Source: a virus. Taken from it: a stretch of DNA of 64,000 nt. This document shows, piece by piece, positions 31-46,200 of this stretch; positions within the stretch are counted from its first letter, which is position 1, and the number at the start of each line of letters is the position of its first letter. The translations under genes were made by a program, and so were the position numbers. The notes under the pieces are model-generated. The model did no database searches. It was not told the origin of the DNA and saw only the letters and a list, made by a program, of their open reading frames with translations. The stretch is from positions 1 through 64,000 of the IMG/VR virus record IMGVR_UViG_3300032047_000006; one strand, written 5' to 3'.

Positions 31-75
31 GTATATGTGGTTGGGAGAGAGCCACTTAACAAAAAGGAAAGAATC

Positions 76-602: not shown

Positions 603-631
603 TTGCTATTTAGATTAGAGTATGAGATAGT
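603..631 (+). promoter_or_regulatory. sigma70-type early promoter
   Basis: TTGCTA-N17-GATAGT followed by GTGGTTGGGAG. Confidence 0.65.
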
Positions 632-695
632 GATCATGTGGTTGGGAGTTGTGGTGATTCCCGAGAGAAAGAAAGAAAAAAAGGAAAAGTAGAAA

Positions 696-1787
696 ATGTC
701 AGTTGATTTTGAAACATTTATTAAAGTTGCTCCTCACGTCACTGCTGTTAAGAAGCCTGTGCTTCTCAGAGGACGTCACGGCATAGGCAAGTCCTGTGTT
801 GTTTATCAAACTGCTGCTGGGCTTAATCTTCCAGTTGTCGAGCGTCGTGCAAGTCAGATGACTGAAGGTGACTTGGTTGGTTTGCCTGTCATAGACGGCG
901 AATGCACTCGCTTTAACCCACCAGACTGGTTCCACCAAGCTTGCAATGAGCCTGTTGTTCTCTTCCTAGACGAAGTTGATCGTGCTACCATCGAGGTTCG
1001 TCAAGGTATTTTCGAGTTAACAGACTCTAGAAAGCTTAATGGGCATGTTCTTCATCCTAATACTCTTATCTTTGCTGCTGTAAATGGTGGTGAGCACGGT
1101 GAGCAGTACCAAGTAGGGGAAATGGATCCTGCTGAGTTGGATCGTTGGACAGTGTTCGATGTTGAACCTACTGTTGAAGACTGGTTAACTTGGGCTAAAG
1201 AAAACGTTGACAGCGTTATTTGGAATTTCATTAATCAGAATCGCAATCACTTGGAACATACAAGTGAGTTCGAGCCTAACAAGGTTTATCCAAGTCGACG
1301 TTCTTGGGATCGTTTGAATGAATGTCTTGTCAATGCTTCTTTCATCTCTGATGAGAATCGCAAAGAGTCACTTGGCATGATTTATGAGTTGACAACTGCT
1401 TTCGTTGGTTTCGAAGCTGCTGTTGCTTTCCGTGACTTCTGTGACAAGTACGAGAGTCAAGTACTTATCGAAGACATTCTTGATAACGGTGAGTTAGAAA
1501 AGGTTAAAGACTTCTCCATCAATGATCACTCGGCGATGGTAGAGAAAATGGAATCAGCAGGTACCTTCGAAGAAGAGCTGACTGAAGCCCAGGTTCAAAA
1601 CCTTGTTGACTACTTTGTAATGTTGCCAAGTGAAGTTGCAATGAAGCTCTTCACAGTTATCGGTAACGCTGGTGAGGCTGGACAACAGAACGTTATCAAG
1701 CTTCACAAATCACATGCTTCGGTTGATGGACGCCAGTTCTCTCGAATCATCGTTGAATTAATCACTGGTTCCGACCCGGAAGCCTAA
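696..1787 (+). CDS. MoxR-family AAA+ ATPase
   Basis: Walker A GRHGIGKS, Walker B LFLDE, sensor-1 AAVN, arginine finger DPAELDR, PSRRSW motif; next to a VWA gene. Confidence 0.92.
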   Translation: MSVDFETFIKVAPHVTAVKKPVLLRGRHGIGKSCVVYQTAAGLNLPVVERRASQMTEGDLVGLPVIDGECTRFNPPDWFHQACNEPVVLFLDEVDRATIEVRQGIFELTDSRKLNGHVLHPNTLIFAAVNGGEHGEQYQVGEMDPAELDRWTVFDVEPTVEDWLTWAKENVDSVIWNFINQNRNHLEHTSEFEPNKVYPSRRSWDRLNECLVNASFISDENRKESLGMIYELTTAFVGFEAAVAFRDFCDKYESQVLIEDILDNGELEKVKDFSINDHSAMVEKMESAGTFEEELTEAQVQNLVDYFVMLPSEVAMKLFTVIGNAGEAGQQNVIKLHKSHASVDGRQFSRIIVELITGSDPEA

Positions 1788-1796
1788 AGTATCCTT

Positions 1797-1856
1797 CCCT
1801 TCCTGCGTAGTTCTCTCACCACCTACTTTCCTTTTTCTACGCAGGAAGGGTTTTTT
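1797..1856 (+). terminator. Intrinsic terminator with perfect 14-bp stem and 26-nt loop
   Basis: CCCTTCCTGCGTAG (1797-1810) / CTACGCAGGAAGGG (1837-1850) followed by T6. Confidence 0.8.
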
Positions 1857-1859
1857 CTC

Positions 1860-1888
1860 TTGACATTCGGTGAGAAATTTGGGATACT
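1860..1888 (+). promoter_or_regulatory. sigma70-type early promoter
   Basis: TTGACA-N17-GATACT followed by GTGGTTAGGAGA. Confidence 0.75.
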
Positions 1889-1918: not shown

Positions 1919-3139
1919 ATGACTTTTGATTTAAACAAACATACTGCTCGACTCCTCAGAGATGAGCCGTTCTTCGCCGCTCTGTCCAGAAAGATAGACA
2001 AGCGAGCTTCCACTGCTATTCCTACAGCAGGCGTTAGAGTCAACCCTGACTCTGGCTATTTCGAGATGCTTTACAATCCAGAGTTCTTCGAAGGGTTAAC
2101 CGACTCTCACAAGCAAGGTGTTCTCATGCATGAGTTCTACCACCTTGTCTTTGAACATGTTACTGGGCGTTTGCCTGAAGGTGGCATGTCCATGATTTGG
2201 AACCAAGCTACTGACTTGGCTATCAACTCTCATTTGATGGGTAAACTTCCTAAGGGCGCTCTGATTCCTGGTGAAGGTTACTTCGAAGGCTTTCCTGTCG
2301 GCGCTACTGCTGATCAATACTTGGAGCTTTTAAAACAAAAAAAGCAAGAACAAGAAGAGAACGGCGAAGGTAAAGGTGGAGAAGGAGAGGGCGAAGGAGA
2401 AGAAGGTAACGGTTCAGGCTCTGGTTCCGGCTCTGGCAATGGACATTCTGATCCTGGTGCCTGGGATGATCACTCTGGTTGGGGCGAGACTGATAACACT
2501 ACTAATGAGATTGCTAAAGAACGTTTAAAAGAAGCTGTAAAGAAAGCAGCTGAAGAAGCTAGTAAAGGTTCTGGTTGGGGTTCAGTCTCTTCAAAGTGTC
2601 GACAAGACATCATTGATTCAGTAACTACTAAGGTTTGCTGGCGTAAAGTCTTGCGATACTTCATTAAGACGTCTCAGAAGGCGAACAAGCGCTCTACAAT
2701 CAAGCGAGTTAACAAACGTTACGCCTATATCCACCCAGGCAAGAAAGTCCAGCGACAAGCCAAGATTGCCATCGCAATTGATCAATCTGGTTCTGTCGAC
2801 AATACAATGCTTACAAAGTTCTTCTCTGAGTTGAACAACTTAGCAAAATTAGCAGAGTTCACAATCATTCCTTTCGATCACGAAGTTGATGAGAATAAAA
2901 TCTACGTCTGGAAGAAAGGTGAACGACGGAAAACAGAGCGTGTATTGACTGGCGGTACTTGCTTCGATGCTCCTACTGATTATGTTAATCGTCATAACTT
3001 TGACGGTGTCATTATCTTGACAGATATGTATGCTCCCAAGCCAAAGAACTGCAAGGCACAGCGAATGTGGATGACTGATGCATCCTGCGCTGCGCATCCT
3101 TATTTCACCACACGAGAACGTGTAATTGTTATCGATTAA
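1919..3139 (+). CDS. Metallopeptidase + VWA domain protein (DUF2201-like), MoxR partner
   Basis: HEFYH zincin motif, 'WNQATDLAINS', G/E/S-rich linker, MIDAS DQSGS..GGT..TD; ATG at 1919. Confidence 0.9.
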   Translation: MTFDLNKHTARLLRDEPFFAALSRKIDKRASTAIPTAGVRVNPDSGYFEMLYNPEFFEGLTDSHKQGVLMHEFYHLVFEHVTGRLPEGGMSMIWNQATDLAINSHLMGKLPKGALIPGEGYFEGFPVGATADQYLELLKQKKQEQEENGEGKGGEGEGEGEEGNGSGSGSGSGNGHSDPGAWDDHSGWGETDNTTNEIAKERLKEAVKKAAEEASKGSGWGSVSSKCRQDIIDSVTTKVCWRKVLRYFIKTSQKANKRSTIKRVNKRYAYIHPGKKVQRQAKIAIAIDQSGSVDNTMLTKFFSELNNLAKLAEFTIIPFDHEVDENKIYVWKKGERRKTERVLTGGTCFDAPTDYVNRHNFDGVIILTDMYAPKPKNCKAQRMWMTDASCAAHPYFTTRERVIVID

Positions 3140-9642: not shown

Positions 9643-9673
9643 ATTGTTGTGAGTTGGTGGTGAAGGAGTTCTT

Positions 9674-15765: not shown

Positions 15766-18726
15766 ATGGGTGGATTAGGCGGACACGTAGATCATCTTTA
15801 TGACAATCCAGATTTATCATTCACGGATATGATAAAGATAATGCAAGCTGCTTCCAACGGTGAGATCACTGGTGGTGAAAAGCTCGATGGACAAAACCTC
15901 TTTGTTTCTTATTCTGTAAAGGACGGCAAAGCAAAAGCTGCACGAAATGTAGGTAATGTAAAGAAGGGTGGGATGGATGCAGAAGCACTCGCTGCTAAAT
16001 TTGCTGGACGTGGGACATTAGAGAAAGCATTCAATGGTGCCTTTGAAGCATTCGTTGATGCAGTCCAGCAATTATCAGACGACGTGAAAATAAAGGTTTT
16101 TGGTGCTGATGCTAACATATTTTATAATGCAGAAGTTATGGATCCCGATAATCCTAATATTATTAACTACAATTCTAAAAATCTTATTATCCATAGAGAT
16201 GGGCACGGCGAATATGATCGTGAATCAGGTAAAGTAACCGATAGAGATGTTTCTGCTGAAGCTAACTTACTCGGCAAAGCTCTGAAGAAAATCCAAAAGT
16301 CAGACAAAGAGGATTCTTTTGGCGTTGAAATGAAAGCAGTAGAACGTCTTCGTGCTCTTTCGGATGATAAAGCTCTCACAACAGCAGTTAGTAGGCTTAA
16401 AAAATTACTCGCTGCCTCACAAGTGGGTGAGGGCGCTACTGTTGGGGAGTATATTATCTCCAAATTGGATGCCCTTGTTGAAAGAATGTTTCCAGACTTA
16501 GAAGAAACTACTAAAAAGATGCTTCTTCAAAGAATGTTTGGCGTAAAAGGCGTTACTGCAACACAAATATATAAAACTATCAAGGATCCAGAGGTTAAAA
16601 TTGCTGTTAAGTCCTTTATTAAAGATGATAAGAGAGTCCGAAAGGAAATTATTTATCCTCTCGAAGATATTGTTCATGACTTTGCAGTCGAAATGCTCGA
16701 TGGTTTGAAGTCAAGATTTGTTCTTTCTCACAAGGATGAGATAAATCGGATGGCAGACAGACTTGAACAAGCCATTTCAGATATTGAGTCCGCCGGTGAT
16801 GATACAAAGATACAAAAATTGAAAGCGGGGCTTGGCAAGTTAAAGAGTTTGGACAAAATCTCCTCTTCTATGGAAGGTTTTGTGTTCGCTTTCAATGGAC
16901 ACACTTATAAATTAACGGGATCATTCGCCCCTGTTAATCAAATTATGGGATTGTTGCCGTGGGAAGATAAAAAAGGCTCCGACTTAAACGAAGAATCTTC
17001 TGGTGGCAAGCGAATTGGGCTTTTTCCTGGCAAATTCAAGCCACCACACGCAGGACACTTCCTCGGTGCGAAAGAAATGATTGATTCTTACGATGCAGAT
17101 GTAGTCTTTATTATTATCTCCAAGAAATCTGTCAAAAGAGAGACTGAGGGCGGGCTATTTATTGTTTCGCCTGAAGTTTCCGAGAAGATGTGGAATACAT
17201 ATATCGATGAGAATGGGTATAATGGTAAGATCGTCCCGATCACGTCTAAATATCCCTCTCCCATTGTGGATACCTACGAAATGTTGAAAGAATTTAGCCC
17301 AGGGACATCAGTTTTGGTTTCAAAGGGAGAAAAAGATGGCGCAGACGCTCGATTTGATAGAATGGAGAAGTTTATTGCAAAAAACAACCTACCTGTGAAG
17401 GCTGTCCAAGTAGATGGCTCGATGTCGGACACTGGTGCGACTGGTACTTTACTTGGAAACGCTATTGCCAACCGTGATATCGAATCTTTTAAGAAAATGG
17501 TGCCTCTTTCAGGATCTTCAGCTATGAAGCTTTGGGAAGAAATCGTCAGCCAGGTTATAGACGAAGATTTTGACTTATATTCTCAGCCCGAGACTGCCGT
17601 TTTGAGTGAAGTTTGGAGAATGATTGATGAAGCACTCGAAATAGATGCAAAAGACACTCCGAGTGGACAACTCGGCGGTCCAGCGTCTGTTGATATTGAT
17701 GATGCCAGTGGTGACGATGAACAGGACGCAAATATTATTAAGAAAGGGGGTGATAATTCATCGACTGAAGTCGAGATTGTTACTAAAACTGTTGTTTCTG
17801 TCGACGTCACCACTGGTAAAGCTACCGTTGTCAACAAAGTAGAGGAATCTGAGGATTCTTCTAAAGAGATTATGCGTGAAGTCGATGCTAACGCAGACAG
17901 AGGCATCATCAACCTAGAAGATGGGCTAGGTATTTCTAGAAATGAGCTTCCTCAAATTAAGTCCGCCGATGTTTCAGAATTTATTGAGTGGTTGGACGGA
18001 CAAGGGATGGATAGTTTCAGTACTTCATTCCCAGTGGGTGGATTGAAGCCTGTTCAAAAAGAAATTAATTTAGAAAAAGTCTTTTCCATGGCTGAAAAAC
18101 ACCAGGCTGGTGAAATAGATCTTTCTAAAGGTAAGCCCTTAATGACTTCTAGTGACGAATATATTATAGATGGACATCATAGATGGTATGCTCTCCGTGA
18201 ATTAGATCCAAAGAACGAAATTGATATTATTATGATTGATGCTTCTGCAAGAAAGCTTATTGAGTTTATGAAAGAGTTTCCAAAGACTTCCTATAAGCAA
18301 ACTACTGATGAAAACCTTTATGAATCATCTTATGGTAAAGTAGGTGGTGAAAAAGAAGTTGTTAACGTCGGAAAGATGAAAATAGTTATTGATATAGAAA
18401 ACATGGATCTCGAACCTTCCAAGCATGGAGAAGAAAGAAGGTTTCGTCACGGAAAAGGTAAAACTATTTCAAAAGATGCTATCTTGCAAGCAGCCGAACG
18501 TGGCTTGGGCTTGATTATTCAAGATTATGCGAACGGTGAAATATCAAATGGGGAAGCTTTCGTTATTAGGCACAAAGCAAATGCTAAAACACCTGCATTG
18601 AATTTGGTTGGTGCTTTAGAAATGAGGAAGGGTCCTGATACAATGAAAATTATTACTGTAATGAGAAAAGATGATTTCAAAACCGATAACTTCGGTGGCG
18701 GACAACAAAAAACTTATAATATTTGA
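15766..18726 (+). CDS. Multidomain protein: ligase-like nucleotidyltransferase + HIGH-family nucleotidyltransferase + ParB/Srx-like domain + small C-terminal RNase-like domain
   Basis: EKLDG / EGFVF / YKLTG; FPGKFKPPHAGH; IIDGHHRW; SKHGEERRFRH..ITVMRK. Confidence 0.75.
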   Translation: MGGLGGHVDHLYDNPDLSFTDMIKIMQAASNGEITGGEKLDGQNLFVSYSVKDGKAKAARNVGNVKKGGMDAEALAAKFAGRGTLEKAFNGAFEAFVDAVQQLSDDVKIKVFGADANIFYNAEVMDPDNPNIINYNSKNLIIHRDGHGEYDRESGKVTDRDVSAEANLLGKALKKIQKSDKEDSFGVEMKAVERLRALSDDKALTTAVSRLKKLLAASQVGEGATVGEYIISKLDALVERMFPDLEETTKKMLLQRMFGVKGVTATQIYKTIKDPEVKIAVKSFIKDDKRVRKEIIYPLEDIVHDFAVEMLDGLKSRFVLSHKDEINRMADRLEQAISDIESAGDDTKIQKLKAGLGKLKSLDKISSSMEGFVFAFNGHTYKLTGSFAPVNQIMGLLPWEDKKGSDLNEESSGGKRIGLFPGKFKPPHAGHFLGAKEMIDSYDADVVFIIISKKSVKRETEGGLFIVSPEVSEKMWNTYIDENGYNGKIVPITSKYPSPIVDTYEMLKEFSPGTSVLVSKGEKDGADARFDRMEKFIAKNNLPVKAVQVDGSMSDTGATGTLLGNAIANRDIESFKKMVPLSGSSAMKLWEEIVSQVIDEDFDLYSQPETAVLSEVWRMIDEALEIDAKDTPSGQLGGPASVDIDDASGDDEQDANIIKKGGDNSSTEVEIVTKTVVSVDVTTGKATVVNKVEESEDSSKEIMREVDANADRGIINLEDGLGISRNELPQIKSADVSEFIEWLDGQGMDSFSTSFPVGGLKPVQKEINLEKVFSMAEKHQAGEIDLSKGKPLMTSSDEYIIDGHHRWYALRELDPKNEIDIIMIDASARKLIEFMKEFPKTSYKQTTDENLYESSYGKVGGEKEVVNVGKMKIVIDIENMDLEPSKHGEERRFRHGKGKTISKDAILQAAERGLGLIIQDYANGEISNGEAFVIRHKANAKTPALNLVGALEMRKGPDTMKIITVMRKDDFKTDNFGGGQQKTYNI

Positions 18727-33459: not shown

Positions 33460-36400
33460 ATGTCTTTCAAATTTACCCAAGAGCATGCAGCGCTTTCGGA
33501 TCAGATAGCAATGCAGCAACATTCAGAGAGAACAGGGTACGATTATGGAAGCTCTAATTATACATTTCTCAGGAACTATGCTGAATCACAGGCTCAGTTT
33601 GAGGACTTTGCTCAAACTGGACGCCCGCTAGGGAAATTAATCCCTAGAGTGGGCACAATAACTCTAAATGGACTCCAAGCAGAAATAAGCCAGGCAGACA
33701 TTGATGCCTATTCCGCTGCCCACCCGCAAAACGTCGTCACTGGGCAAACAAGAATAAAATATGTAGAAATGCTTCAGGCAGGAAACTCGCCAACAACTTC
33801 AAACTCTAGTCCATCAACCGAGCAAGATGAAACTAAAGGTGCCGCAATCCGCATCAGGGTTATAGAAATTAATACAGGTAAATTTATAAAAAAGGAAGGT
33901 TTCAAAACAAACGAAGAGTATCAGAAGTGGGTTGAAGAATCTCCAGTTCAAGCAATATCAGCATCCCAGACTGAAGGTTTTGACTATGACGTAACTTTTC
34001 CAATACAGCTCGATCAGGAAGAAGCCACGGCAGAAGGCGCAGCATCACCACCGGCAACTGTTACTCCCTCTTATCCACCAGAACCGTCAGCGCTAACACA
34101 TAAGGTTAGCGAGATAAGCACTCATGTTCGAACAGAGCCAAGTTCAACAGCTTCAATTATAGACTCTCTTCTTCTTGAAACGGAAGTTACGGTATATGAC
34201 GAAAGTGTCGGAAAAAACGGTGATTGGGCAAAAGTATCAAGAGTATACAGGGGTTCTAGCGAGATCGGCGTCGGATATATATTATCATCGGAACTTGAAA
34301 GAAAAGAAGGAATTATACCAGCCCCGATAAATTCAGAAGACGATAAATCATTTAGAAAGTCTGAAATAAGTCAAATTTGGACAAGCAAGTCTGATGGCAT
34401 CCCCTATTATGACTCTTCCGACGCAAAATACAAAGTGTCTATCACTACTGATAAAAAAGATGTAAATGTAGGCATTCAAAAAATATACGAAGAGTTCCTA
34501 CCAAAGGGTGTAGGCTTGATTCTTGATCAAGAGGGAAAGGAGAATACTGAAGAAATAATAAATTCTTTAATAAATACAGAGTCTTATGATAATATTGCTA
34601 GAGCAGAAGAATTCTTTTTAGAGCCACGCTCATCTTCCTTTGTTAAGATACTTGTCACTGTCCCACATAAGCATCTAAGCTTGCTTGAGGATAAGGATTT
34701 AGATAAAGACAACTTTTATACATATCATGAATATGATCTTGAAAAGTTCAGAGAAAATATATCAAAAATAATAAAGAAAATAGACAAGGTAGGCACATCC
34801 GTAAAAAGATTTAAAGGGGAGGTAAAAGAGTTCGACTCGAAAGAGGAATCGTTAAGAATGTCGATGTTGTACGACAATTTCCGAAATCTTTTAAAATCAA
34901 ACGATGTAAAATTTGCTCCTGAGCATAAAGGGGAGATCCTTGCCATCGGATGGGATAGAACAGATAAGGTTATTTTCGTCTCTCACACAGATCCGGAATC
35001 AAACGAAATCATCGCAACAAAGGAATATCTTTCATTAAATGCAAAAACCGAGATGAGCAGCAGAAGAACCCAGTTTTTACTACAGAATATGAAAGAACTG
35101 GTTTCAGAGGGCATAGGCTTACCTTGGAAAGAGTTCTTAGAGACTCACGTTGGGTTTGATAAAGTAACAATAGTTCCTAAAGCGGATCCTCCAAAGAATT
35201 CCAAATCTTCCGAAGCTGAGGGTCCAACGGCGATGACAAGGGCACAGTTTTTAGCAGAGGAAAAATTCTATCTCAACAAAGAGAGAAGAATTGAGAAGAT
35301 AAAAGAAAGAATTAAGCAAAGAGATTTCGTTGGAAGTGTATCTAAGCAGGACAACTATAAAAAGCTTAAAAAAGAATTGAACTCGCCCCTAGAAGACATC
35401 TATGAAAATGTTTTATCTAGAATAGACTTAAAGAGCCTACTGGTATCAGCATTACAGTGCGCCCCAATGCATGGACAGTTAGATATTTTAAATCTTCCAG
35501 ATTTGATAAAAGACATAGACAAAATAATTGACGAGGCAAAGAAACTATTTCACGAGCTTCCGACAATGTTTTTTGATGTGGATTTCCCAACAGACGACAT
35601 TTCCGCCTCGTTTGTCAAGGATCTTAAAAACTTTATAACGGATATGATCACTGCATTAATAGCATCCCTTGTACAATCAGTATTTTCATCATTGATAGAT
35701 TTCTGTCCAGACGTCTCTGGTAATGAAGATTCGCCGATGGATCCTGAAAGGTTGGACTTGTCAGCCCTCCAGGCTGCACTCGATGACATGCTCGGCGATG
35801 GCATCAGAGAAAATATAGATGTAGACTCTATGATGAATTTCATAGAGGATTTGGCATCGATGTTATCGTTGCAAGAGTATTGTGATTTAGTATCTGGAAA
35901 TCCGAGTGATAAGGCGCTCGACATCGTAATGAATTTAATAAGGGTTGAATATTGCCACCTGGGATTAGACACCAAGGCTAAAGTAATAGAATTCTTTAAA
36001 CTATTGGCAGGAACAGGTAAATTTGATATTTGTGATGAATTGAATGAAATCCTTCCACCGCCTAGTAGTTTATCTCCAAACGAAGATCCATGTGAACCCG
36101 ATAATTTACGAAGAAGAATTTTAATAAACAAAGGTATGTCAGACGAACAGGTTCAGGAGCAAATTAGGCGAGAACGAGAAAGAACTGCAAAGCTCGCACG
36201 CCAGTTAATGGACGCCATGGCAGGACAGCCATTTCAAGCTCCAAACCTATTTTGTCAAAAAGATGCAGAAGGAAATATTATACCAGGCGCAACCCCCTTC
36301 ATGGACGAGACATTTTCAGTTATGATGAGGGAGACAGTAGAATCACTCTTCGGTCCAGTGTATACCACCTTTCAGTCAGACGGACAATCCTATTCGGATA

Positions 36401-39400
36401 GTCTTATGGAAGAGGTGGATGCCACGAGAATAGTGATTACAGGGTATGAGAAGGATGATGATGATAATCCTGTTCTCACGAAACCTATTAAAACAACCGT
36501 TGATATAAAGGAGAAAGTACCTGTAAGTTCTCTAAAAAGTTCTCATGATTCATATCAAATAAATGAGAGTTCGGAAATTAAGATTCCTTTATCATCTCCA
36601 TCCGCCGAGGCAAGTGAAATATCGGCAATTTTACAAAAGAATAAGGATGATAAAGAAGGAATTCTCACAGAAGCCGAGACAATCGTCGAGTCAGCACAAC
36701 ACATGTACGATTCCGTTTCAGAATCCGCCCTCAATAATGCGAGAGAGTTAGTGAGATGGAACAATTCACAAGTCAAGTTTGCCAAAGAAGCTGTGGAGCA
36801 GGCTATAAAAGATGTCAAAGCAGAAAATATCACCAACGAGGGACTCAACAAAGTTCGAGAAGACACAGGGCAAGAAGGCGGCTTCATCGTGTACAAGACA
36901 CCACAAGACAGCCCCCAAGTCAAAGCCGCCGAAGCCAAGCTATCGGATGCTGAACAAAAGGAACAAGAAGCCATCGGCGCATTGGAAAGAGCTGAACGGG
37001 CATTGATAGAAGACAGAGAGAGGCTTTTAAGGGAACTCTCGGAAGCAAAGTCGTCAAGGGATGAGGCACAATCAGATTATGACACCGCCGCAGAGAGTAC
37101 TGAGCGAATAAAGCAACTGGAGTCTAATCTTGCAGAATTAAATAAATTTGCGATTTACAAGGAACTCACTCCGAGAGAGGTTGCGGAAAGAGAAGAGGCA
37201 GAACGACAACTCCACAGGGATCGACAGTTATTAGCTGAACAGCTTCTTTCTCCTCCTCCATCTATAGGACTTCCCAAGGAAGCGGAGTATGTTCCACTTG
37301 AAGAAGAGGGTTGTGTCCCAGAGTTTTCACCTATGCCCTCCCCAACCCAGGGACTTAAAGGTATTTTTCAAGATCGCCCACCAGCACCAGAAGAAACTAC
37401 GGCTGAACCATCGCAGCCGCTCTACAGTACTGCCCCTCCGCCTCCTTTTTTGGATGACACTCCATCGGTATATGATGTTGACGTGAGACCAGTCACAGGA
37501 CAATCAATGCTTATTGGAGGTAAAGAATATTTTACAAAAAGGAGAGTACCCGAAGATATTATGCAATTCATGTCAACTTCAACAATGGAGGAGAGATATT
37601 CTGGAGTGTCTTTCTTTACTCAGCTTCTAAAAGATTCATATCCACAGGGTTTTAATGATGAGCAGAAAAAAATTATTCCTATCATATATAAGGATTTGAA
37701 ACATGAAATAATTGAAAATCTTTTTCGAATAGTTGCAAAAGGAAAGTATTTTGAGACATATGAGGGCACCGATGCTCTTGGGTATTTTGTAGAACTTATT
37801 AACTTAGGTCCAGCCGTTACAGACACTTGCGATCCACATTTGCTGAAATTAAAAAAACTTGTTGATGAAGTTTTAGAAGAATTTCAAGATGATTTTTGTT
37901 TAGACATGGAGGCTGAAAAATCAAACGGAGAAATAAGGAAGACTCCGCTTGAGGCATCGATGATGAAGGCTTGCGTGAAGGCGACACTCCGAGCATACTT
38001 GATAGACAATCTCTCAAGGGGGATATTCACCACAGCCGCCTTTGCCGAGACAGACTCTTTATTGAACTACAAGATGCTCTATATTATAGATAGAATTTCT
38101 GATGAACTCCGCCAGTATGGAGAGGATTATTATATGCTCTTTATGAAAGAAGTATCAGAATTAGATAAAGATAGGGCACCAGGAGAAACAGTTACGAATT
38201 CATTTGCAAGGCTTTTGAAAGGGGAATACAATGAGGTGTCAAGAGGTTTTCTGGAGGCTATATTTATAGATAGCTCTCAGCAAGCAAGTATAAAAGAAAA
38301 ATTATTCCTTTCATTACCTTCTCTCACGATGTCGGAAAATAAACTCCATATAGATATTGGAGAAACTGAAAAAGATTTAATAATACCCAGCCGAGACTAT
38401 AATGACAGGAAAACCCTTCAAAACAACCTGGTATGGACACATCAGTATAAAATTGAGGACAAGTATTATTCAAGAGAAGATGCCGAAGAGCTTCAGAACA
38501 CTTCACAGAAGAAGATTGAAGGGATAAAAACTAGCCTTTGTTGTCTAATCGAACCCGCCGCCGCCGACATGTTTTTGCTGCCCAATCATAACACTCCTCT
38601 GTCTACAGGCGTCAACGGCATGTGGAGAAATGTAGCACCCGTGTTTGATCAAATTGGAACCCAAGATTTATCAAGGAATGTATATATTCTCCCAATAACA
38701 TCTTATGGCTGGAACGTTGAAAATAAATCAGGTGAAGATTTAGAGATACGTTCAATAAGAAAAATGATGAACACAATTAAAATGAGAACTCTTTTTGACT
38801 GGGCTTTTCCACTGGAAGATTATCAATCTTTAATTTCATTACACGAAATGGCTCAATTATCAACAATACAAAAGGTAAACACCGTGTTCGGAGAGTCTAG
38901 AGATGAACTCCACAGTCTATTTTTCTCTGTGTTACCCGAGTCTGATGATTGGAAGAAAAACCCGAATGCACTGAACAATGTCGGCGGCATGGATAATTTG
39001 ACAGCAATTTTTGATTATAATTTTGGACTCAAGGGTGTTCCATGTACAAATTTGAAGTGGAATATGGGATTGGGTGTAGAATGGGGCAACCCCTTTAAAG
39101 GACTCAGTCTCACTTTCGCACTCAAGGCGATACTTAACACGTCCCTAATGCTATTCAAGGGGCATGTGGAAAGAATGGATCCAAATGTAATCTTGGCTAA
39201 CCGGCTGTCCTTCTTATCTTCACTAGTGTGTCTAAATATTCCACCTACGGCATATTCTACACTCTTAATGATCCCATGGCCAGGCAATCCTTATATGCCC
39301 AACCAACTGAATGTCCTTTATAATGCTCTTGGGCTCGGACTTTTCGATGCTAGTAAACAAGCAGAATCGACAGATAAGAAAAAGGTTAAAAAAGCATTGG

Positions 39401-39504
39401 AGAATAACGGTTTCGCTATGCCTGAGTATTGCGATGTAAGGGAAGAGCAGGAAGAACAAGCTACCACAGCATATTCAGAAGACACACTTCCGAGCTACGA
39501 ATAA
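33460..39504 (+). CDS. Large baseplate/tail protein with SH3b-like domain and coiled coil
   Basis: 2014 aa; 'HVRTEPSSTASIIDSL..EVTV....GDWAKV'; directly upstream of gp25. Confidence 0.65.
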   Translation: MSFKFTQEHAALSDQIAMQQHSERTGYDYGSSNYTFLRNYAESQAQFEDFAQTGRPLGKLIPRVGTITLNGLQAEISQADIDAYSAAHPQNVVTGQTRIKYVEMLQAGNSPTTSNSSPSTEQDETKGAAIRIRVIEINTGKFIKKEGFKTNEEYQKWVEESPVQAISASQTEGFDYDVTFPIQLDQEEATAEGAASPPATVTPSYPPEPSALTHKVSEISTHVRTEPSSTASIIDSLLLETEVTVYDESVGKNGDWAKVSRVYRGSSEIGVGYILSSELERKEGIIPAPINSEDDKSFRKSEISQIWTSKSDGIPYYDSSDAKYKVSITTDKKDVNVGIQKIYEEFLPKGVGLILDQEGKENTEEIINSLINTESYDNIARAEEFFLEPRSSSFVKILVTVPHKHLSLLEDKDLDKDNFYTYHEYDLEKFRENISKIIKKIDKVGTSVKRFKGEVKEFDSKEESLRMSMLYDNFRNLLKSNDVKFAPEHKGEILAIGWDRTDKVIFVSHTDPESNEIIATKEYLSLNAKTEMSSRRTQFLLQNMKELVSEGIGLPWKEFLETHVGFDKVTIVPKADPPKNSKSSEAEGPTAMTRAQFLAEEKFYLNKERRIEKIKERIKQRDFVGSVSKQDNYKKLKKELNSPLEDIYENVLSRIDLKSLLVSALQCAPMHGQLDILNLPDLIKDIDKIIDEAKKLFHELPTMFFDVDFPTDDISASFVKDLKNFITDMITALIASLVQSVFSSLIDFCPDVSGNEDSPMDPERLDLSALQAALDDMLGDGIRENIDVDSMMNFIEDLASMLSLQEYCDLVSGNPSDKALDIVMNLIRVEYCHLGLDTKAKVIEFFKLLAGTGKFDICDELNEILPPPSSLSPNEDPCEPDNLRRRILINKGMSDEQVQEQIRRERERTAKLARQLMDAMAGQPFQAPNLFCQKDAEGNIIPGATPFMDETFSVMMRETVESLFGPVYTTFQSDGQSYSDSLMEEVDATRIVITGYEKDDDDNPVLTKPIKTTVDIKEKVPVSSLKSSHDSYQINESSEIKIPLSSPSAEASEISAILQKNKDDKEGILTEAETIVESAQHMYDSVSESALNNARELVRWNNSQVKFAKEAVEQAIKDVKAENITNEGLNKVREDTGQEGGFIVYKTPQDSPQVKAAEAKLSDAEQKEQEAIGALERAERALIEDRERLLRELSEAKSSRDEAQSDYDTAAESTERIKQLESNLAELNKFAIYKELTPREVAEREEAERQLHRDRQLLAEQLLSPPPSIGLPKEAEYVPLEEEGCVPEFSPMPSPTQGLKGIFQDRPPAPEETTAEPSQPLYSTAPPPPFLDDTPSVYDVDVRPVTGQSMLIGGKEYFTKRRVPEDIMQFMSTSTMEERYSGVSFFTQLLKDSYPQGFNDEQKKIIPIIYKDLKHEIIENLFRIVAKGKYFETYEGTDALGYFVELINLGPAVTDTCDPHLLKLKKLVDEVLEEFQDDFCLDMEAEKSNGEIRKTPLEASMMKACVKATLRAYLIDNLSRGIFTTAAFAETDSLLNYKMLYIIDRISDELRQYGEDYYMLFMKEVSELDKDRAPGETVTNSFARLLKGEYNEVSRGFLEAIFIDSSQQASIKEKLFLSLPSLTMSENKLHIDIGETEKDLIIPSRDYNDRKTLQNNLVWTHQYKIEDKYYSREDAEELQNTSQKKIEGIKTSLCCLIEPAAADMFLLPNHNTPLSTGVNGMWRNVAPVFDQIGTQDLSRNVYILPITSYGWNVENKSGEDLEIRSIRKMMNTIKMRTLFDWAFPLEDYQSLISLHEMAQLSTIQKVNTVFGESRDELHSLFFSVLPESDDWKKNPNALNNVGGMDNLTAIFDYNFGLKGVPCTNLKWNMGLGVEWGNPFKGLSLTFALKAILNTSLMLFKGHVERMDPNVILANRLSFLSSLVCLNIPPTAYSTLLMIPWPGNPYMPNQLNVLYNALGLGLFDASKQAESTDKKKVKKALENNGFAMPEYCDVREEQEEQATTAYSEDTLPSYE

Positions 39505-39984: not shown

Positions 39985-41823
39985 ATGAGTAAAAAGAGAA
40001 CAGTATCTATTAAATATACGAGCAGAGAATTCGATACTATCAAGGCAGACTTGGTTGAATATATAAAAAGGTATTACCCAAATTCATATAAAGACTTTAA
40101 CGAAGCGTCTTTTGGCTCCTTGATGATTGATACTGTGTCTTATGTCGGAGATATTCTTTCGTTCTACATAGACTATCAAGCGAACGAAACCTACCTCAGT
40201 ACTGCTACAGAATTCGATAACCTCCTCAAGATAGGAAAACAGGCAGGATACAAATTTTCAGGAACACCGTCTTCCGTTGGACTTGCTTCTTTTTATGTAA
40301 TGGTTCCTGCGACAACATCAGGCATCGGTCCTGACACAAAATATATCCCTGTCTTAAAGAAAGGCGCATCAGTGTCGACTAAGTCTGGAAATTCGTTCAT
40401 ACTCAGTCACGATGTTCACTTTGGATCTAATAACAATGAAATTAGAGTTGCTAGAGTTGATCCAAATTCAGGTGATCCGACTTATTATGTAATAAAGGCG
40501 TTCGGAGAAGTTGTTTCAGGAGTTATAGATACTGAGTTTGTCACTGTAGGTTCATTCGAGAAGTTTAAAAAAGTAAGGTTGGAATCATTGGATATATCTG
40601 AGGTAATTTCTGTCAAAGACGCCGAGGGAAATGAATATTATGAAGTAGACTTCCTATCGCAAAATATTATATACAAGGGTGTTACAAACAGAAGCAAAAC
40701 TCTAGGAAATCAGTCACTTGATTATAATACAGGAGATCAGTCTTCAGAAATACTGAAGCCCGTAGTTGTTCCACGAAGATTTGTTACCGATCGCTCAAGA
40801 AGAAGGACTGAATTAACTTTTGGAGCGTCATCTGATTATATTATGCCAAACGATATGATATCAGAACCCCAGTCTACAGTTTTGGAAGTTCACGGAAGAA
40901 ATTATATACAAGACACCTCGTTTGATCCTACGAATTTGATAAAAAGTGATAAGTTTGGAATTAGTCCTTCTGATACCATACTTACGGTAGAGTACAGGAG
41001 AAACTCTGCACAAAATGTAAATTGCAGCACTAATCAGTTGACACAGACTGGAGACTATGAGATGGAATTTACAGATATTACGACACTCAACAGTGCTCAG
41101 ATGACATTTATATCTACATCTCTGGAAGTAGACAATGAAGAGCCTATCATTGGCGATGTGACAATCCCAAATTCTGAAGAACTACGCCACAGGATAATGG
41201 GAACATTTCCTACTCAAAACAGAGCGGTAACACAACAAGATTATGAATCTTTGATTTACCAAATGCCACCACGTTTCGGAGCAGTTAAGAGATGTCGAGT
41301 AATAAGAGACAATGATTCATTAAAGAGAAATATAAACATATATATGATTTCGGAAAACGCCTCAGGTACACTTACAGAAGCAAATTCTGTATTAAAAAGG
41401 AACGTAAGGACTTGGATCCAAAAGAATAAGATGATAAATGATACAGTCGATATTCTTAACGCAAAGGTGGTTAATTTAACTATCGATTTTGTTGCAGTCG
41501 CCTCAATCGAGTCCTCCAAGTATGATGTCCTCGCCGCCGCAAAAACAGCTTTAGCAAGAAGATTCACAAGGCATCCTGACATCGGCGAACCATTCTTCAT
41601 AACGGACGTTTATAAAGAATTGAGGAAAGTAGACGGCATTATTGATGTGTCGGACGTTAAGATAAATCAAAAAAATGGCATGACATCTGAAGGAAATTAT
41701 TCTACAATAAGATTTGACATTAATAGAGCAATGTCAGCCGACGGCAGATATATTGAACTGCCCAAGAATTTGATATACGAATTAAAATATCCAATTTTGG
41801 ATATTAATGGGGTGATAGTATAA
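39985..41823 (+). CDS. Baseplate wedge protein, T4 gp6/baseplate-J-like
   Basis: YTSREFDTIKADL..DFNEAS; NETYLSTA; TQNRAVTQQDYE. Confidence 0.9.
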   Translation: MSKKRTVSIKYTSREFDTIKADLVEYIKRYYPNSYKDFNEASFGSLMIDTVSYVGDILSFYIDYQANETYLSTATEFDNLLKIGKQAGYKFSGTPSSVGLASFYVMVPATTSGIGPDTKYIPVLKKGASVSTKSGNSFILSHDVHFGSNNNEIRVARVDPNSGDPTYYVIKAFGEVVSGVIDTEFVTVGSFEKFKKVRLESLDISEVISVKDAEGNEYYEVDFLSQNIIYKGVTNRSKTLGNQSLDYNTGDQSSEILKPVVVPRRFVTDRSRRRTELTFGASSDYIMPNDMISEPQSTVLEVHGRNYIQDTSFDPTNLIKSDKFGISPSDTILTVEYRRNSAQNVNCSTNQLTQTGDYEMEFTDITTLNSAQMTFISTSLEVDNEEPIIGDVTIPNSEELRHRIMGTFPTQNRAVTQQDYESLIYQMPPRFGAVKRCRVIRDNDSLKRNINIYMISENASGTLTEANSVLKRNVRTWIQKNKMINDTVDILNAKVVNLTIDFVAVASIESSKYDVLAAAKTALARRFTRHPDIGEPFFITDVYKELRKVDGIIDVSDVKINQKNGMTSEGNYSTIRFDINRAMSADGRYIELPKNLIYELKYPILDINGVIV

Positions 41824-43229
41824 TGTCTATAAAAAAGTTTCAAATAACCGCCGACACAACGATATACAATGCCTTCAAAGAAAACCTAAAGGATAGAGGT
41901 ACAGAGGCGAACACAGGACTTTCGGACTCACTAGAGACTTTCTTCATATATGGGCAAACTCCAGATCCCAACGCCGCTGCCTCAGACAAGGTGGAAGAAG
42001 CCAGAATACTTTTGAAGCCTGATTTCCAAGGAATATTGGACACATATACTAATTTCCCATCTGACACTAAATTTATCCTGAGGTTGTTCAATGCCGAACA
42101 CCCATTCACCCTGCCTAAAAATTTTACATTAAACCTTTTTTCAATCGTTGATAGTTGGCTTGAAGGTTCGGGGTTAGACATGGAGTCATACAGAGATGTG
42201 GGCACTCCAAATTGGTTGAAAAAGGACGCAACCACCACCTGGGCGACATCTGGTGCAATAGATACATCAACTGCGCCTGTAATCACGTCTCAGACATTTA
42301 GTGAAGGTACCGAGGACATGTCACTAGACATAACCTCGTTCATGCAGGCAAACTGGGCAAACCTATCAGATCACTCTTTCGTGGTTTCCTTTCCGTCTTC
42401 AATAACAGACGGTGTAACGCAGACTTTAAATTTTTACACAAAGAAATTCTTTTCTCGCTCATCAGAATTCTTCTTTAAGCGCCCCGTTGTTGAAGCTAGA
42501 AAAGCAAGTTTTACTGGAGACGACAGAGGCAGATTATATAAGTCTTCACCACTGACTACCAATAACGAACAAAACTTATATTTATATAACACCGTTTCTG
42601 GAGTTAGAGAAAATATAACAGGTGACGTTAAATTGGAGCTATTTTCAGATTCAACACTGGAGACATCAATCGTTGCAGCAGTTGACGCCACCCGCCCCGA
42701 TACAGGCGTCTATAAGGCTGTGATCACTGTACCTGACACTGTTACGGTGGAAACCATATACGAAAAATGGACAGCAGGAGCCACGACTATAAAGACGGGT
42801 TCAATAAAGCTTCTAACAAGAGAGCCCGCCACTAATAACTCTGAAATTAATTATGTAACAGACATCACAAATATCAAGCCCTCCTATGCACCCACGGAGC
42901 AGGCAAGATTCAGGATTTACACGAGACAAAAAGATTGGAATCCAACTATTTATACAGTAGCGAGCGAAGAATTAGAGAACTTGATTGTTGACAAAATGTA
43001 TTATAAGATTATTCGTTTAATCGACGGCGAAACTGTCATGGACTATGGCATCGGCACACTTAATAATAACAAAGAACACACACTCATCTCTTATGACGCT
43101 CAAGGTAGTTATTTTGATTTTGATATATCGTCCCTCGAAAGTGGATATATGTATGGAATCAAATTGATGTTCTCCGTAGCTGGAGAACTAAAGGAACAAC
43201 CAAATACTTTTAAGTTTAGGGTGGATTGA
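41823..43229 (+). CDS. Baseplate/tail structural protein
   Basis: Translationally coupled to gp6; beta-rich; 'KFFSRSSEFFFKRPVVEAR'. Confidence 0.7.
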   Translation: MSIKKFQITADTTIYNAFKENLKDRGTEANTGLSDSLETFFIYGQTPDPNAAASDKVEEARILLKPDFQGILDTYTNFPSDTKFILRLFNAEHPFTLPKNFTLNLFSIVDSWLEGSGLDMESYRDVGTPNWLKKDATTTWATSGAIDTSTAPVITSQTFSEGTEDMSLDITSFMQANWANLSDHSFVVSFPSSITDGVTQTLNFYTKKFFSRSSEFFFKRPVVEARKASFTGDDRGRLYKSSPLTTNNEQNLYLYNTVSGVRENITGDVKLELFSDSTLETSIVAAVDATRPDTGVYKAVITVPDTVTVETIYEKWTAGATTIKTGSIKLLTREPATNNSEINYVTDITNIKPSYAPTEQARFRIYTRQKDWNPTIYTVASEELENLIVDKMYYKIIRLIDGETVMDYGIGTLNNNKEHTLISYDAQGSYFDFDISSLESGYMYGIKLMFSVAGELKEQPNTFKFRVD

Positions 43230-46200
43230 TGAGTACCAAGGATTTATTCAATAAAAACAATAAAATACTAACAAAATCTGAAGCAAATAAGGTTAAGAAG
43301 GATATAGAGTCTTTTGAACTAGTAAACGATATATCAGAAGCTCGCACATCCCTACGTCCACGTGTTGATTATTCCAAGCCCGAGAATTTTGCAAAATACG
43401 GATCTGCGAAGAAATATTACGAAGATTCATTTCAAAGGATACATAGGACATTTCCATACGATGGTTCTAATTCAGAAATCCAGAAATGGTTAAATACATC
43501 GACTGGGCTAGACTTATGGATATATGAAAATATCTATCCTCGCTCCACAGGACATATTAAGTTACTTAATAACCAGTCCGTCACAGCCCAGGGCGGTCCC
43601 AATAAACAGCCCGGCATCACCGAAGGCGAGCAGCACGAACTGTCAAAACAGTTTCCCTCGAAGCAAGGCAATTCGAATATATGGGATACTTCTGTTTATA
43701 GAAATTCAAACTTATATATGGCACCAGCCATTGGCAATACGATCGAATTCTGGGCAAAAGTAGATGCCTCAGTTAATTCACCATTTACTGTCTTTAACTT
43801 AATAAGTGAAAATCAAGTATCGTCATTAATCTCGATGACATATGATCCATCTACAGGGAATGTAACCTATAAATATAAAGATGATGCGGACAACGGCTTT
43901 TCATCCAATTCTGTATCCATCCCTGGCTTAATCTCAACTTCTTGGAATCATATAGCTATATCTTTTCAAAGTGTGAGCGATAAAGTTAATGTTGAAATAT
44001 ATAAAAACGGGCTAAGAATCCACGATGTTTCGGTAGGGGATGCAATGACTACTGTATCCCAGTCAGAACTTTTCTTAAATATAAACGGCACATCCAATTC
44101 GAACAATTCTGCAAATGGACTTTATATCGACGAATTCAGATTTTGGAAGCTCCGAAGAACAGAAGAACAGATCGCCAGACATTGGTTTACTAATGTCTAC
44201 GGTGGCACAAACACTGACGACAATAAATATAGTACGGAAACTAGAAACGTTGATATAGGTGTATATTATAAGTTTAACGAAGGAATAGTTTCTGACGCTA
44301 CCATCGATGCAACTGTACTAGATTATTCTGGAAGAATTTCTAACGGCACAATCGTTAACTACACAGAAACAGTAAGATCAACTTTATCCGCCATTGATGA
44401 GTCTTCGCATACAACGGAATCGGAGGAAAAAGATCCGATAATATATCCATCCCATCCGTCCTATATTTCTTCTCTTGACAGATATTCAAACGCCGGAAAC
44501 AATTACGATATATCAAACAACGCATCTGTATTTCACACGATGCCTGCTTGGATAATTGAGGAAGATGATGAACGGGGCAGTCTGAAAGAGTTGACACAAG
44601 TAATAAGTAGTTATTTTGACAACACTCATTTACAAATTCAGGAATTAACAGAGTTAAAAAAACCAGAATACTATAGTGCCACGTCCCCAGAAGATAGAGC
44701 ATCTTATCTGGTAAAGACAGGAATCGAATCTTCTGGATTAACCATACCAGATCTGTTTACAGAAGCCACAGCTCTAGAGGACATCCTTAGTCGCAACGAG
44801 AAAAGTCTCTTTGAAGAGAAGCTTCACGATATAAAGAACACGATATATCAAAACATTTACAACAACTTGTCCTATATTTATAAATCTAAGGGAACAGAGA
44901 AAGCGTTCAGGAACCTGATAAGATGTTTTGGCATCGATGACGAACTTGTTCGTGTTAATTTGTATTCTGACAACACAGATTATCTACTAGAAGATACAAG
45001 AAGAGTCGGCTCTACAAAGAAAAATTTTCTTGACTTTAATTCGTCTACACGAGATCAGGCATTCGTAGAAACAACACAGGATTCTTTGAATCAATCGTCC
45101 ACCGTATCATATATCAAGGGCGCAAGAACAAACTGGAAAAACCTTTCAGCAACATTTGAAACAGAGCTGATGTTCCCAGGTTATATGGGAACTACACATC
45201 CTGAATATGCACCACCAACAAACACAGTTGAAAATATAGCATCCATAGGCGTATATTCCTCAGGATATACTTCCACGGAACTGTGGAACCTGACAGCCAT
45301 TAAGGAAGATAATAACCCTTATTCAAAAAATCTTAAATTCAGATTAGAGATGGAGGGGCAGACGCTAGATACACCTTATTTCAAAGATGTGTATGGTAAT
45401 TCAAAGTGGAATGTTGCAGTTAGAGTAAAACCTAAGTCAAGTCTACCACTCGGCACCCAAGCATCTTCACTGGAATATGGTATTGAGTTGTATTGCCTAA
45501 GAACTACAGCCGACACGATAGAAGAGGAGATCTTGGTATCCGCCACCGTCACCACCTCTGGCTCATATTTAAGTTCTGATAAATATTTGAGGCTAGGAAA
45601 GGTTGTCGCTGATACCTCAAAATCTCTGAAGGTATCTTCAACATTATTCTGGTATGATTATCTGTCAAACGATGAAATAAAAGCCCACGCATCTGACAGT
45701 TCAAATTACGGTAGATTGAATCCTACAGAAAGGGTATATTCCCACTTAACGACTTTAGAGGGAATTCCACTAACAAGAATGGACACCTTGGCGCTACACT
45801 GGGATTTCAACAATATCACAACTAGTGACGGATCCGGACAAGCTCTCGTTCAAGATCTATCGGAGGGAATTCCATCAACGTCATTGCCGCTAAATAGTAA
45901 AGCAATTCAATTCGACGGCGATATCACAGCCGGACAGACAGATCATGTCTTAGTATCAGACAGTGACGACTTCAGTTTCACATCTGGAGCAGGCACAGAT
46001 ACTCAGTTTTCCATCTCTGCATGGGTATATGTAGACGATATCGCCACAGATAACGGACCTTTCGTATCAAAGGCACTTGTGCAGGGAGCAGGAGTTGATA
46101 TTACAGAATACATCTTTAAACATGTTAACGGTAAGCTAAGAACATTCCTGTATAATCCAGACGGCACTGGCAAAAGAATAACGCTGGATTGCAACTCTGC

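Follow-up and report, generated by a model that had tools for sequence, protein, structure and literature searches.

A 3'UTR terminator loop matching the ribosome-binding site of its own MoxR-like ATPase gene in marine phages: a probable built-in RNA brake on translation

In the hok mRNA, pairing of a 3'-terminal element with the 5' end holds the full-length transcript in a translationally inactive state, an arrangement with phylogenetic support. In phages P1 and P7, transcription of a single unit yields both the c4 antisense RNA and its target, whose ribosome-binding site (RBS) region c4 complements. For icaR of Staphylococcus aureus, a C/U-rich anti-Shine-Dalgarno (anti-SD) motif in the 3'UTR pairs with the SD of its own mRNA, and a block of initiation has been proposed (PMC3868564). 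The C/U-rich terminator loop of LhrC pairs with the translation-initiation region of its target (PMC4132741), and terminator-loop nucleotides of OxyS kiss the fhlA translation-initiation region, as summarised in PMC11979758.

The DNA analysed here, called the window, is a stretch of 64,000 nucleotides that forms the first 64 kb of an 81-kb IMG/VR contig (CheckV: 45% complete). The source is a large uncultured marine tailed phage, presumably lytic; a search for near-identical phage records returned none, and no close cultured relative was found. Matches of the ATPase and an ORF of 3842 aa had suggested an N4-like identity. The ATPase proved only 24-28% identical to those of N4-like and other phages, and the contig has genes for a baseplate wedge protein, PhoH and glycosyltransferases, which rules this identity out; the genome context likewise does not fit an N4-like early/middle unit of a gp24-like ATPase and a gp25-like vWFA protein. 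The giant ORFs at 33460-39504 (2014 aa) and 43226-54754 (3842 aa) adjoin a baseplate-wedge-like gene at 39985-41823 and may code for structural proteins or fibres, not for a virion RNA polymerase of the N4 type. The features of the region discussed below are as follows.

60-72 (+): RBS tag belonging to the first small gene, whose ATG is at 76; sibling RBSs in relatives have the same tag
603-631 (+): sigma70-type promoter of the MoxR gene, TTGCTA-17-GATAGT; promoter and leader are kept in relatives
637-695 (+): 5' leader of the MoxR mRNA, with a 5' hairpin followed by an unstructured A-rich RBS region in the predicted fold
677-693 (+): RBS region of the MoxR gene, which the 3' half of the terminator loop complements
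696-1787 (+): MoxR-like AAA+ ATPase gene (AAA_5; phrog_1297)
1788-1796 (+): short C/U-rich 3'UTR flank, from stop codon to stem
1797-1810 (+): 5' arm of the terminator stem, CCCTTCCTGCGTAG; co-varies with the 3' arm in relatives
1811-1822 (+): 5' half of the loop, anti-leader motif TTCTCTCACCAC; CTCTCAC is kept in relatives, and TCACCAC faces GTGGTGA
1822-1836 (+): 3' half of the loop, anti-RBS CCTACTTTCCTTTTT
1837-1850 (+): 3' arm of the terminator stem; co-varies with the 5' arm in relatives
1851-1856 (+): U-tract of the intrinsic terminator, TTTTTT
1860-1888 (+): next sigma70-type promoter, near-consensus TTGACA-17-GATACT with TG, four bases past the U-tract
1919-3139 (+): downstream partner gene, with DUF2201_N metallopeptidase-like and DUF2201 VWA-like domains

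Like icaR, this locus has a 3'UTR motif complementary to the RBS of the same mRNA (1822-1836 against 677-693). Unlike icaR, the phage motif lies inside the terminator loop, or just 5' of it in relatives, within a 70-nt 3'UTR; moreover, the phage match runs past the SD core into lineage-specific flanks, and sibling genes share the target. With LhrC and OxyS, the locus shares exposed nucleotides in the loop of a Rho-independent terminator and redundant C/U-rich sites in flank and loop. Those two are dedicated sRNAs with ordinary loops, whereas the phage element is a 19-29-nt loop of a protein-coding mRNA's own terminator and has that same mRNA as its prime target.

The comparison with hok rests on a 3'-terminal element facing the 5' end of the same mRNA; hok, however, is a toxin-antitoxin system activated by 3' processing, and the phage gives no sign of processing or of a toxin. 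As with c4, the phage-encoded RNA comes from the target's own transcription unit and is anti-RBS, but c4 lies upstream of its target and serves temperate-phage immunity, whereas the present element occupies the 3' end of the gene that it would regulate, and its phage is presumably lytic. Our literature search turned up neither a report of 5'-3' UTR pairing in lytic phages nor a family that keeps a 3'UTR anti-SD principle through several architectures. The principle is known from bacteria, as a 3'UTR or terminator-loop anti-SD.

The hairpin begins 9 nt past the TAA stop codon of the MoxR gene. Its arms (1797-1810 and 1837-1850) are 100% complementary over 14 bp with 26 nt between them, and the C/U-rich loop at 1811-1836 reads TTCTCTCACCACCTACTTTCCTTTTT. 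The predicted RNA fold has an MFE of -26.3 kcal/mol (z = -6.7) with the loop entirely unpaired, and the 64-kb window contains no other perfect inverted repeat with a long stem and a large loop. A G+C-rich stem followed by a U-tract and placed 3' of a stop codon has the make-up of an intrinsic terminator. The apical loop does not: intrinsic terminators typically have 3-8 nt there, against 26 nt here and 19-29 nt in 21 relatives. The perfect stem and the unusually large loop described in the earlier note were both confirmed. Since our terminator scan admits only loops of 3-8 nt, the hairpin was absent from its list.

The next promoter (1860-1888) serves the DUF2201/VWA partner gene, and its position directly after the hairpin identifies the latter as terminating a monocistronic unit driven by the promoter at 603-631. 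The first small gene ends in a weak A/T-rich terminator-like palindrome (574-601) with an ordinary short centre and without an anti-RBS loop, which makes the oversized loop a peculiarity of the MoxR unit. A search of loci L001 and L072 with the Rfam 15 covariance models gave no relevant match at E <= 1; the single match listed was a chance one to a miRNA model, at 22 bits against a gathering score of 55.5.

At the other end of the message, a conserved GTGGTTGGGAG begins 6 nt past the -10 box of the MoxR promoter. The 5' hairpin of the leader has a predicted stem at 644-647/659-662, and its loop carries GTGGTGA at 651-657; in relatives the corresponding loops carry GTGAGAG or variants of it. 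Several sigma70-type promoters have GTGGTTRGGAG 6 nt past the -10 box, and their transcripts are presumed to be early. Transcripts of this type begin with GTGGTTGGGAG-type sequence at 37-55, 638-662 and 1895-1905 and in the leaders of L073-L151. Such 5' ends are predicted to fold into a small 5'-terminal hairpin with a purine-rich loop (GAGAG or GTGAGAG), which is kept over a very wide family of marine phages. A locus of the same phage population that covers the DNA just upstream of window position 1 (L072:1545-1790) has a promoter TTGACT-17-TATAGT with a GTGGTTGGGAGAGG leader. After this leader come about 190 nt free of ORFs, then a hairpin and a T-run, which makes the stretch a candidate for a non-coding RNA under a promoter of the same class; it has no Rfam match.

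We then compared the loop with the leaders of the window. Positions 1822-1836, the 3' half of the loop, pair with the MoxR RBS (677-693) through 10 + 4 bp around one bulged A (-14.3 kcal/mol), and positions 1825-1836 pair with the RBS of the gene at 76 (60-72) through 11 contiguous bp (-12.1 kcal/mol), so that both RBS matches claimed in the earlier note, including the extra A in the first, were reproduced. In predictions on the window sequence, the MoxR RBS is unstructured and the terminator loop accessible. The further claim that the loop resembles a complement of the leaders held in part: TCACCAC in the 5' half complements GTGGTGA (651-657) in the MoxR leader hairpin, but pairing with the leader of the VWA gene (GTGGT..GAGA at 1895) was at shuffle level (p 0.63).

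Pairing no stronger than that of shuffled loops had been named beforehand as a result that would speak against the idea, and in the window alone the loop did not rise above its shuffles. Against 1000 dinucleotide-shuffled loops, the five sigma70-type leaders gave p = 0.11, 0.15, 0.63, 0.075 and 0.065, and their sum gave p = 0.12. The + strand of the window is purine-rich, and any C/U-rich loop therefore finds many partners on it. In a genome-wide scan of about 2000 windows, the leaders at 9648 and 631 ranked 6th and 14th, and the top complement of the loop was a coding site (18335-18348), not a leader. This site, AAAGTAGGTGGTGA in ORF 15766-18726, encodes GKVGGE and is a 14-nt exact complement of loop positions 1819-1832; no other site in the 81-kb contig is predicted to pair better with the loop (-28 kcal/mol), and about 0.01 such matches would be expected by chance on a rough base-frequency estimate. 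The match may be coincidental or may mark an internal target. Another candidate, an anti-RBS site at 67915, was dropped because it lies inside coding sequence.

These results bring in one rival explanation, that the C/U-rich loop serves another purpose, for example as a platform for S1, a cold-shock protein or Rho, and that its complementarity to leaders is a by-product of composition. The window-only shuffles agree with it, as do the high background duplex energies that come with a purine-rich + strand. Taken by itself, the sequence of the window would not sustain the idea of leader pairing, and the signal beyond chance comes from relatives.

A query with the MoxR protein yielded 70 viral loci, to which we added the best 80 of 565 metagenomic stretches encoding a relative. 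About 30 loci (77-100% protein identity), representing 21 distinct hairpins, have the same element directly 3' of the stop codon. In all 21 relatives, loops of 19-29 nt stand on stems of 12-15 bp. The stems co-vary: 11 of 12 pairs show compensatory changes and 97% of cells are paired, while 0 of 500 shuffles match this and slid registers fall far below it. The loop keeps (T)CTCTC(TC)AC on its 5' side and CTTTCC(T) or a lineage-specific variant on its 3' side. Since the loop sequence is kept while the stems change, the loop is under selection and the stem is constrained only to pair. In about 90 kb of relative loci, CTCTCAC is confined almost wholly to the terminator loop, and GTGAGAG/GAGAGAG lies almost wholly in leaders and in the spacer of the next promoter. 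The equivalent of the flank at 1788-1796 is CCTTTCCTT in relatives, a second anti-RBS copy. In a distant relative with 52% MoxR identity (L064:4175-4260), a putative tRNA-like sequence replaces the VWA gene after the MoxR terminator.

The 3' half of the loop follows the RBS of its own gene from lineage to lineage, with the loop and RBS pairs AACTCCTTT and AAAGGAGTT, CCTATCTCC and GGAGATAGG, ACTTTTCCTTT and AAAGGAAAAGT, and AACTTTCCTT with the RBS AAGGAAAGTT. Matches to the cognate RBS averaged 8.0 nt, compared with 6.9 nt for non-cognate ones (p = 2e-4). The 5' half matches the purine loop of the 5'-terminal leader hairpin over 7-10 nt per lineage, and one lineage has a 5' half that complements the leader's 5' end perfectly over 16 nt. 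The variable middle of the loop co-varies weakly with leader 5' ends (p 0.015-0.03, uncorrected). Duplex energies in the loop-bearing clade did not distinguish cognate from non-cognate MoxR leaders (p = 0.21); for the VWA leader the difference gave p = 0.004, uncorrected for relatedness, and the shuffled-loop controls were mostly at p > 0.05. Because such energies are too noisy against the purine/pyrimidine bias, we adopted exact-match statistics with a sense-strand control.

More distant clades without the big loop have four other 3'UTR designs, each with 10-15 nt complementary to the MoxR leader or RBS. One is a single-stranded GTCTCTCTCA just 5' of an ordinary terminator, which complements TGAGAGAGAC in the leader. 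Another is a mini-hairpin, TCCTTGGGGAAGGA, that complements the RBS hairpin CCTTCCCCAAGGA(G) over 13-15 nt, with CCTTCCCCAAGG/CCTTGGGGAAGG as a sequence pair of the same design. In the remaining two, TTTCACTCCGGT complements ACCGGAGTGAAA over 12 nt and TCTTTCTCGAT complements ATCGAGAAAGA over 11 nt. Exact matches between 3'UTR and RBS in relatives span 10-16 nt. None of the designs without the loop is a pyrimidine tract, so base composition is no explanation for them.

In a comparison of 117 distinct loci, the longest exact antisense match averaged 7.8 nt between a 3'UTR and its gene's own leader and 6.4 nt between a 3'UTR and the leaders of other loci (p = 5e-5), while the sense-strand control on the same loci showed no effect (5.7 and 5.8). 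The position of the best match within each locus of 2-7 kb pointed the same way: in 27 of 67 family loci it fell in the gene's own leader, although the 62-nt MoxR leader makes up about 1.4% of the locus. Another 12 of the 67 had their best match upstream of another ORF, all such windows together covering 7.4% of the locus. With one random representative per clade, the cognate advantage gave a median p of 0.0015 for 11 clades, p <= 0.0005 for 19 clades and p 0.06 for 5 clades, and the sense control gave p ~0.99. In edge-disjoint sister pairs on the MoxR tree, the cognate match was the better one in 8 cases and the worse in 6 (p = 0.4) and so held no advantage, since sisters have a single design in common; what carries the co-variation is a small number of deep changes of design. 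At the level of clades and designs it is real, with roughly five to ten independent switches suggested by the sequences; at fine scale it did not show. The check on conservation and covariation proposed in the earlier note thus came out in favour on three points, the kept loop, the co-varying stem and the clade-level tracking (p ~0.0015), and not for sister lineages.

The null sister-pair tests also accord with the protein-platform explanation, as does the behaviour of the CTCTCAC and CTTTCC cores, which are conserved rather than co-varying within the loop-bearing clade. We nevertheless regard that explanation as improbable, given that TCCTTGGGGAAGGA, TTTCACTCCGGT and TCTTTCTCGAT are non-pyrimidine designs and exact complements of their cognate RBS, that the sense strand is without a cognate effect, and that so many loci place their best match in their own leader.

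The reading that we prefer, with a probability of roughly 55%, is that the loop is a 3'UTR anti-RBS and anti-leader element that would occlude translation initiation in cis and possibly act on sibling early mRNAs in trans as well. The hairpin would be both the intrinsic terminator and the 3'-end structure of the MoxR-like mRNA, with a loop enlarged to display a single-stranded antisense. The 3' half of this loop would pair with the gene's own A/G-rich RBS tag, common to the sibling gene at 76, and the 5' half (CUCUCAC/UCACCAC) would form a kissing contact with the purine loop in the hairpin at the leader's 5' terminus. After transcription of the 3' end, such pairing would cover the RBS and limit further initiation. 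Acting in cis, the finished mRNA would be closed by pairing of its 5'UTR and 3'UTR, as in icaR; action in trans, on sibling early mRNAs with the same tag, would be possible too. Pairing in vivo, repression of translation as its effect, and the choice of cis or trans are what we infer from the conserved complementarity. Because the order of the two loop halves is 'parallel' to that of the leader elements opposite them, one continuous duplex is impossible; the contacts would therefore be two separate helices joined by a leader linker of about 25 nt, or alternative partners, and a two-helix arrangement would be topologically feasible. The earlier note had proposed 3'-to-5' looping of the mRNA or a 3'UTR-derived antisense, and from these an RNA feedback circuit for the early regulon, which would be a further step. 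The looping or antisense proposal gains from complementarity kept across clades and architectures, and loses by the window-only shuffles, the VWA leader and the sister lineages.

Because the RBS tags are common to sibling early genes, a stable 3' hairpin could also act in trans. A second rival explanation makes this the whole function: a terminated or processed fragment, consisting of the hairpin and its U-tail, would be an antisense RNA that shuts off presumed-early sigma70-driven mRNAs through the shared RBS tag or the 5' hairpin. The loop has a seed for several targets, and its 11-bp match to the gene-76 RBS is longer than its contiguous match to the MoxR RBS. RBS tags on sibling genes in relatives match the 3'UTR as well; in the mini-hairpin clade copies of the tag lie 860-1050 nt upstream of the MoxR start codon, and the first gene of L104 carries it. 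In several loci, the best match of the 3'UTR is the leader of another small early gene, and the genome-wide ranks of the leaders at 9648 and 631 are in keeping with trans targets. The C/U-rich terminator loops of LhrC and OxyS work in this way.

A scan for sigma70-like promoters on the + strand just upstream of the hairpin found none, so that a free fragment would have to arise by RNA processing. For some leaders, that of the VWA gene among them, pairing stays at shuffle level. We examined 4 of 10 marine RNA runs that contain parts of the region, as Logan contigs and partly from oligo-dT libraries. No small RNA was seen among these contigs, which are short and of low depth, with unreadable starts, ends and strand and with possible DNA carry-over. 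A purely trans-acting regulator would not have to lie in the 3'UTR of the gene that it matches, and here the element always does. This constant position is why action in cis is favoured, and we consider a trans-acting RNA a possible but rather unlikely sole function.

A third rival explanation starts from GGTGAGA at 1868-1874, in the spacer of the promoter at 1860-1888; these seven nucleotides, GTGAGAG in relatives, again complement the loop's 5' half. The loop CTCTCAC and the spacer GTGAGAG/GGTGAGA could be an operator pair for a DNA-binding regulator, or could form a pseudoknot in read-through transcripts that controls the VWA gene. The spacer 7-mer is kept in many lineages though promoter spacers normally drift, it keeps its place 16-18 nt past the stem in L100-L104 too, whose promoter is further downstream, and RNA-library contigs (1754-2015 and 1785-2053) bridge the terminator. 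The spacing of the 7-mers, however, varies continuously over 51-57 bp and is not helically phased, which leaves the operator reading as a minor rival only. A sub-clade (L085-L088, L091 and L096-L099) keeps the loop without the spacer motif, and the anti-RBS half of the loop and the other 3'UTR designs are left unexplained. We regard an operator pair or pseudoknot as very improbable.

On the comparison of related loci, the match between the 3' end and the 5' end of the ATPase message probably serves as an RNA brake on translation that the message carries in itself. Little has been mapped of the regulation that runs through 3'UTRs in bacteria and phages, and the five natural designs with the same logic are ready-made compensatory variants and a testable model of how the pairing of mRNA ends limits translation. 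A terminator loop of unusual size can serve to display a functional element, which matters for the annotation of terminators and sRNAs in viral metagenomes. As a more tentative and rather doubtful extension, this marine phage family may make 'self-closing' early mRNAs, in which a 3'UTR module, re-invented in the 3'UTR of the same gene in at least five designs, among them the terminator loop, the single-stranded flank and a kissing mini-hairpin, would snap onto the message's own or sibling RBS tags; translation would then occur only during transcription, as a transcription-completion timer. Phages might in this way time or dose their early proteins without protein regulators.
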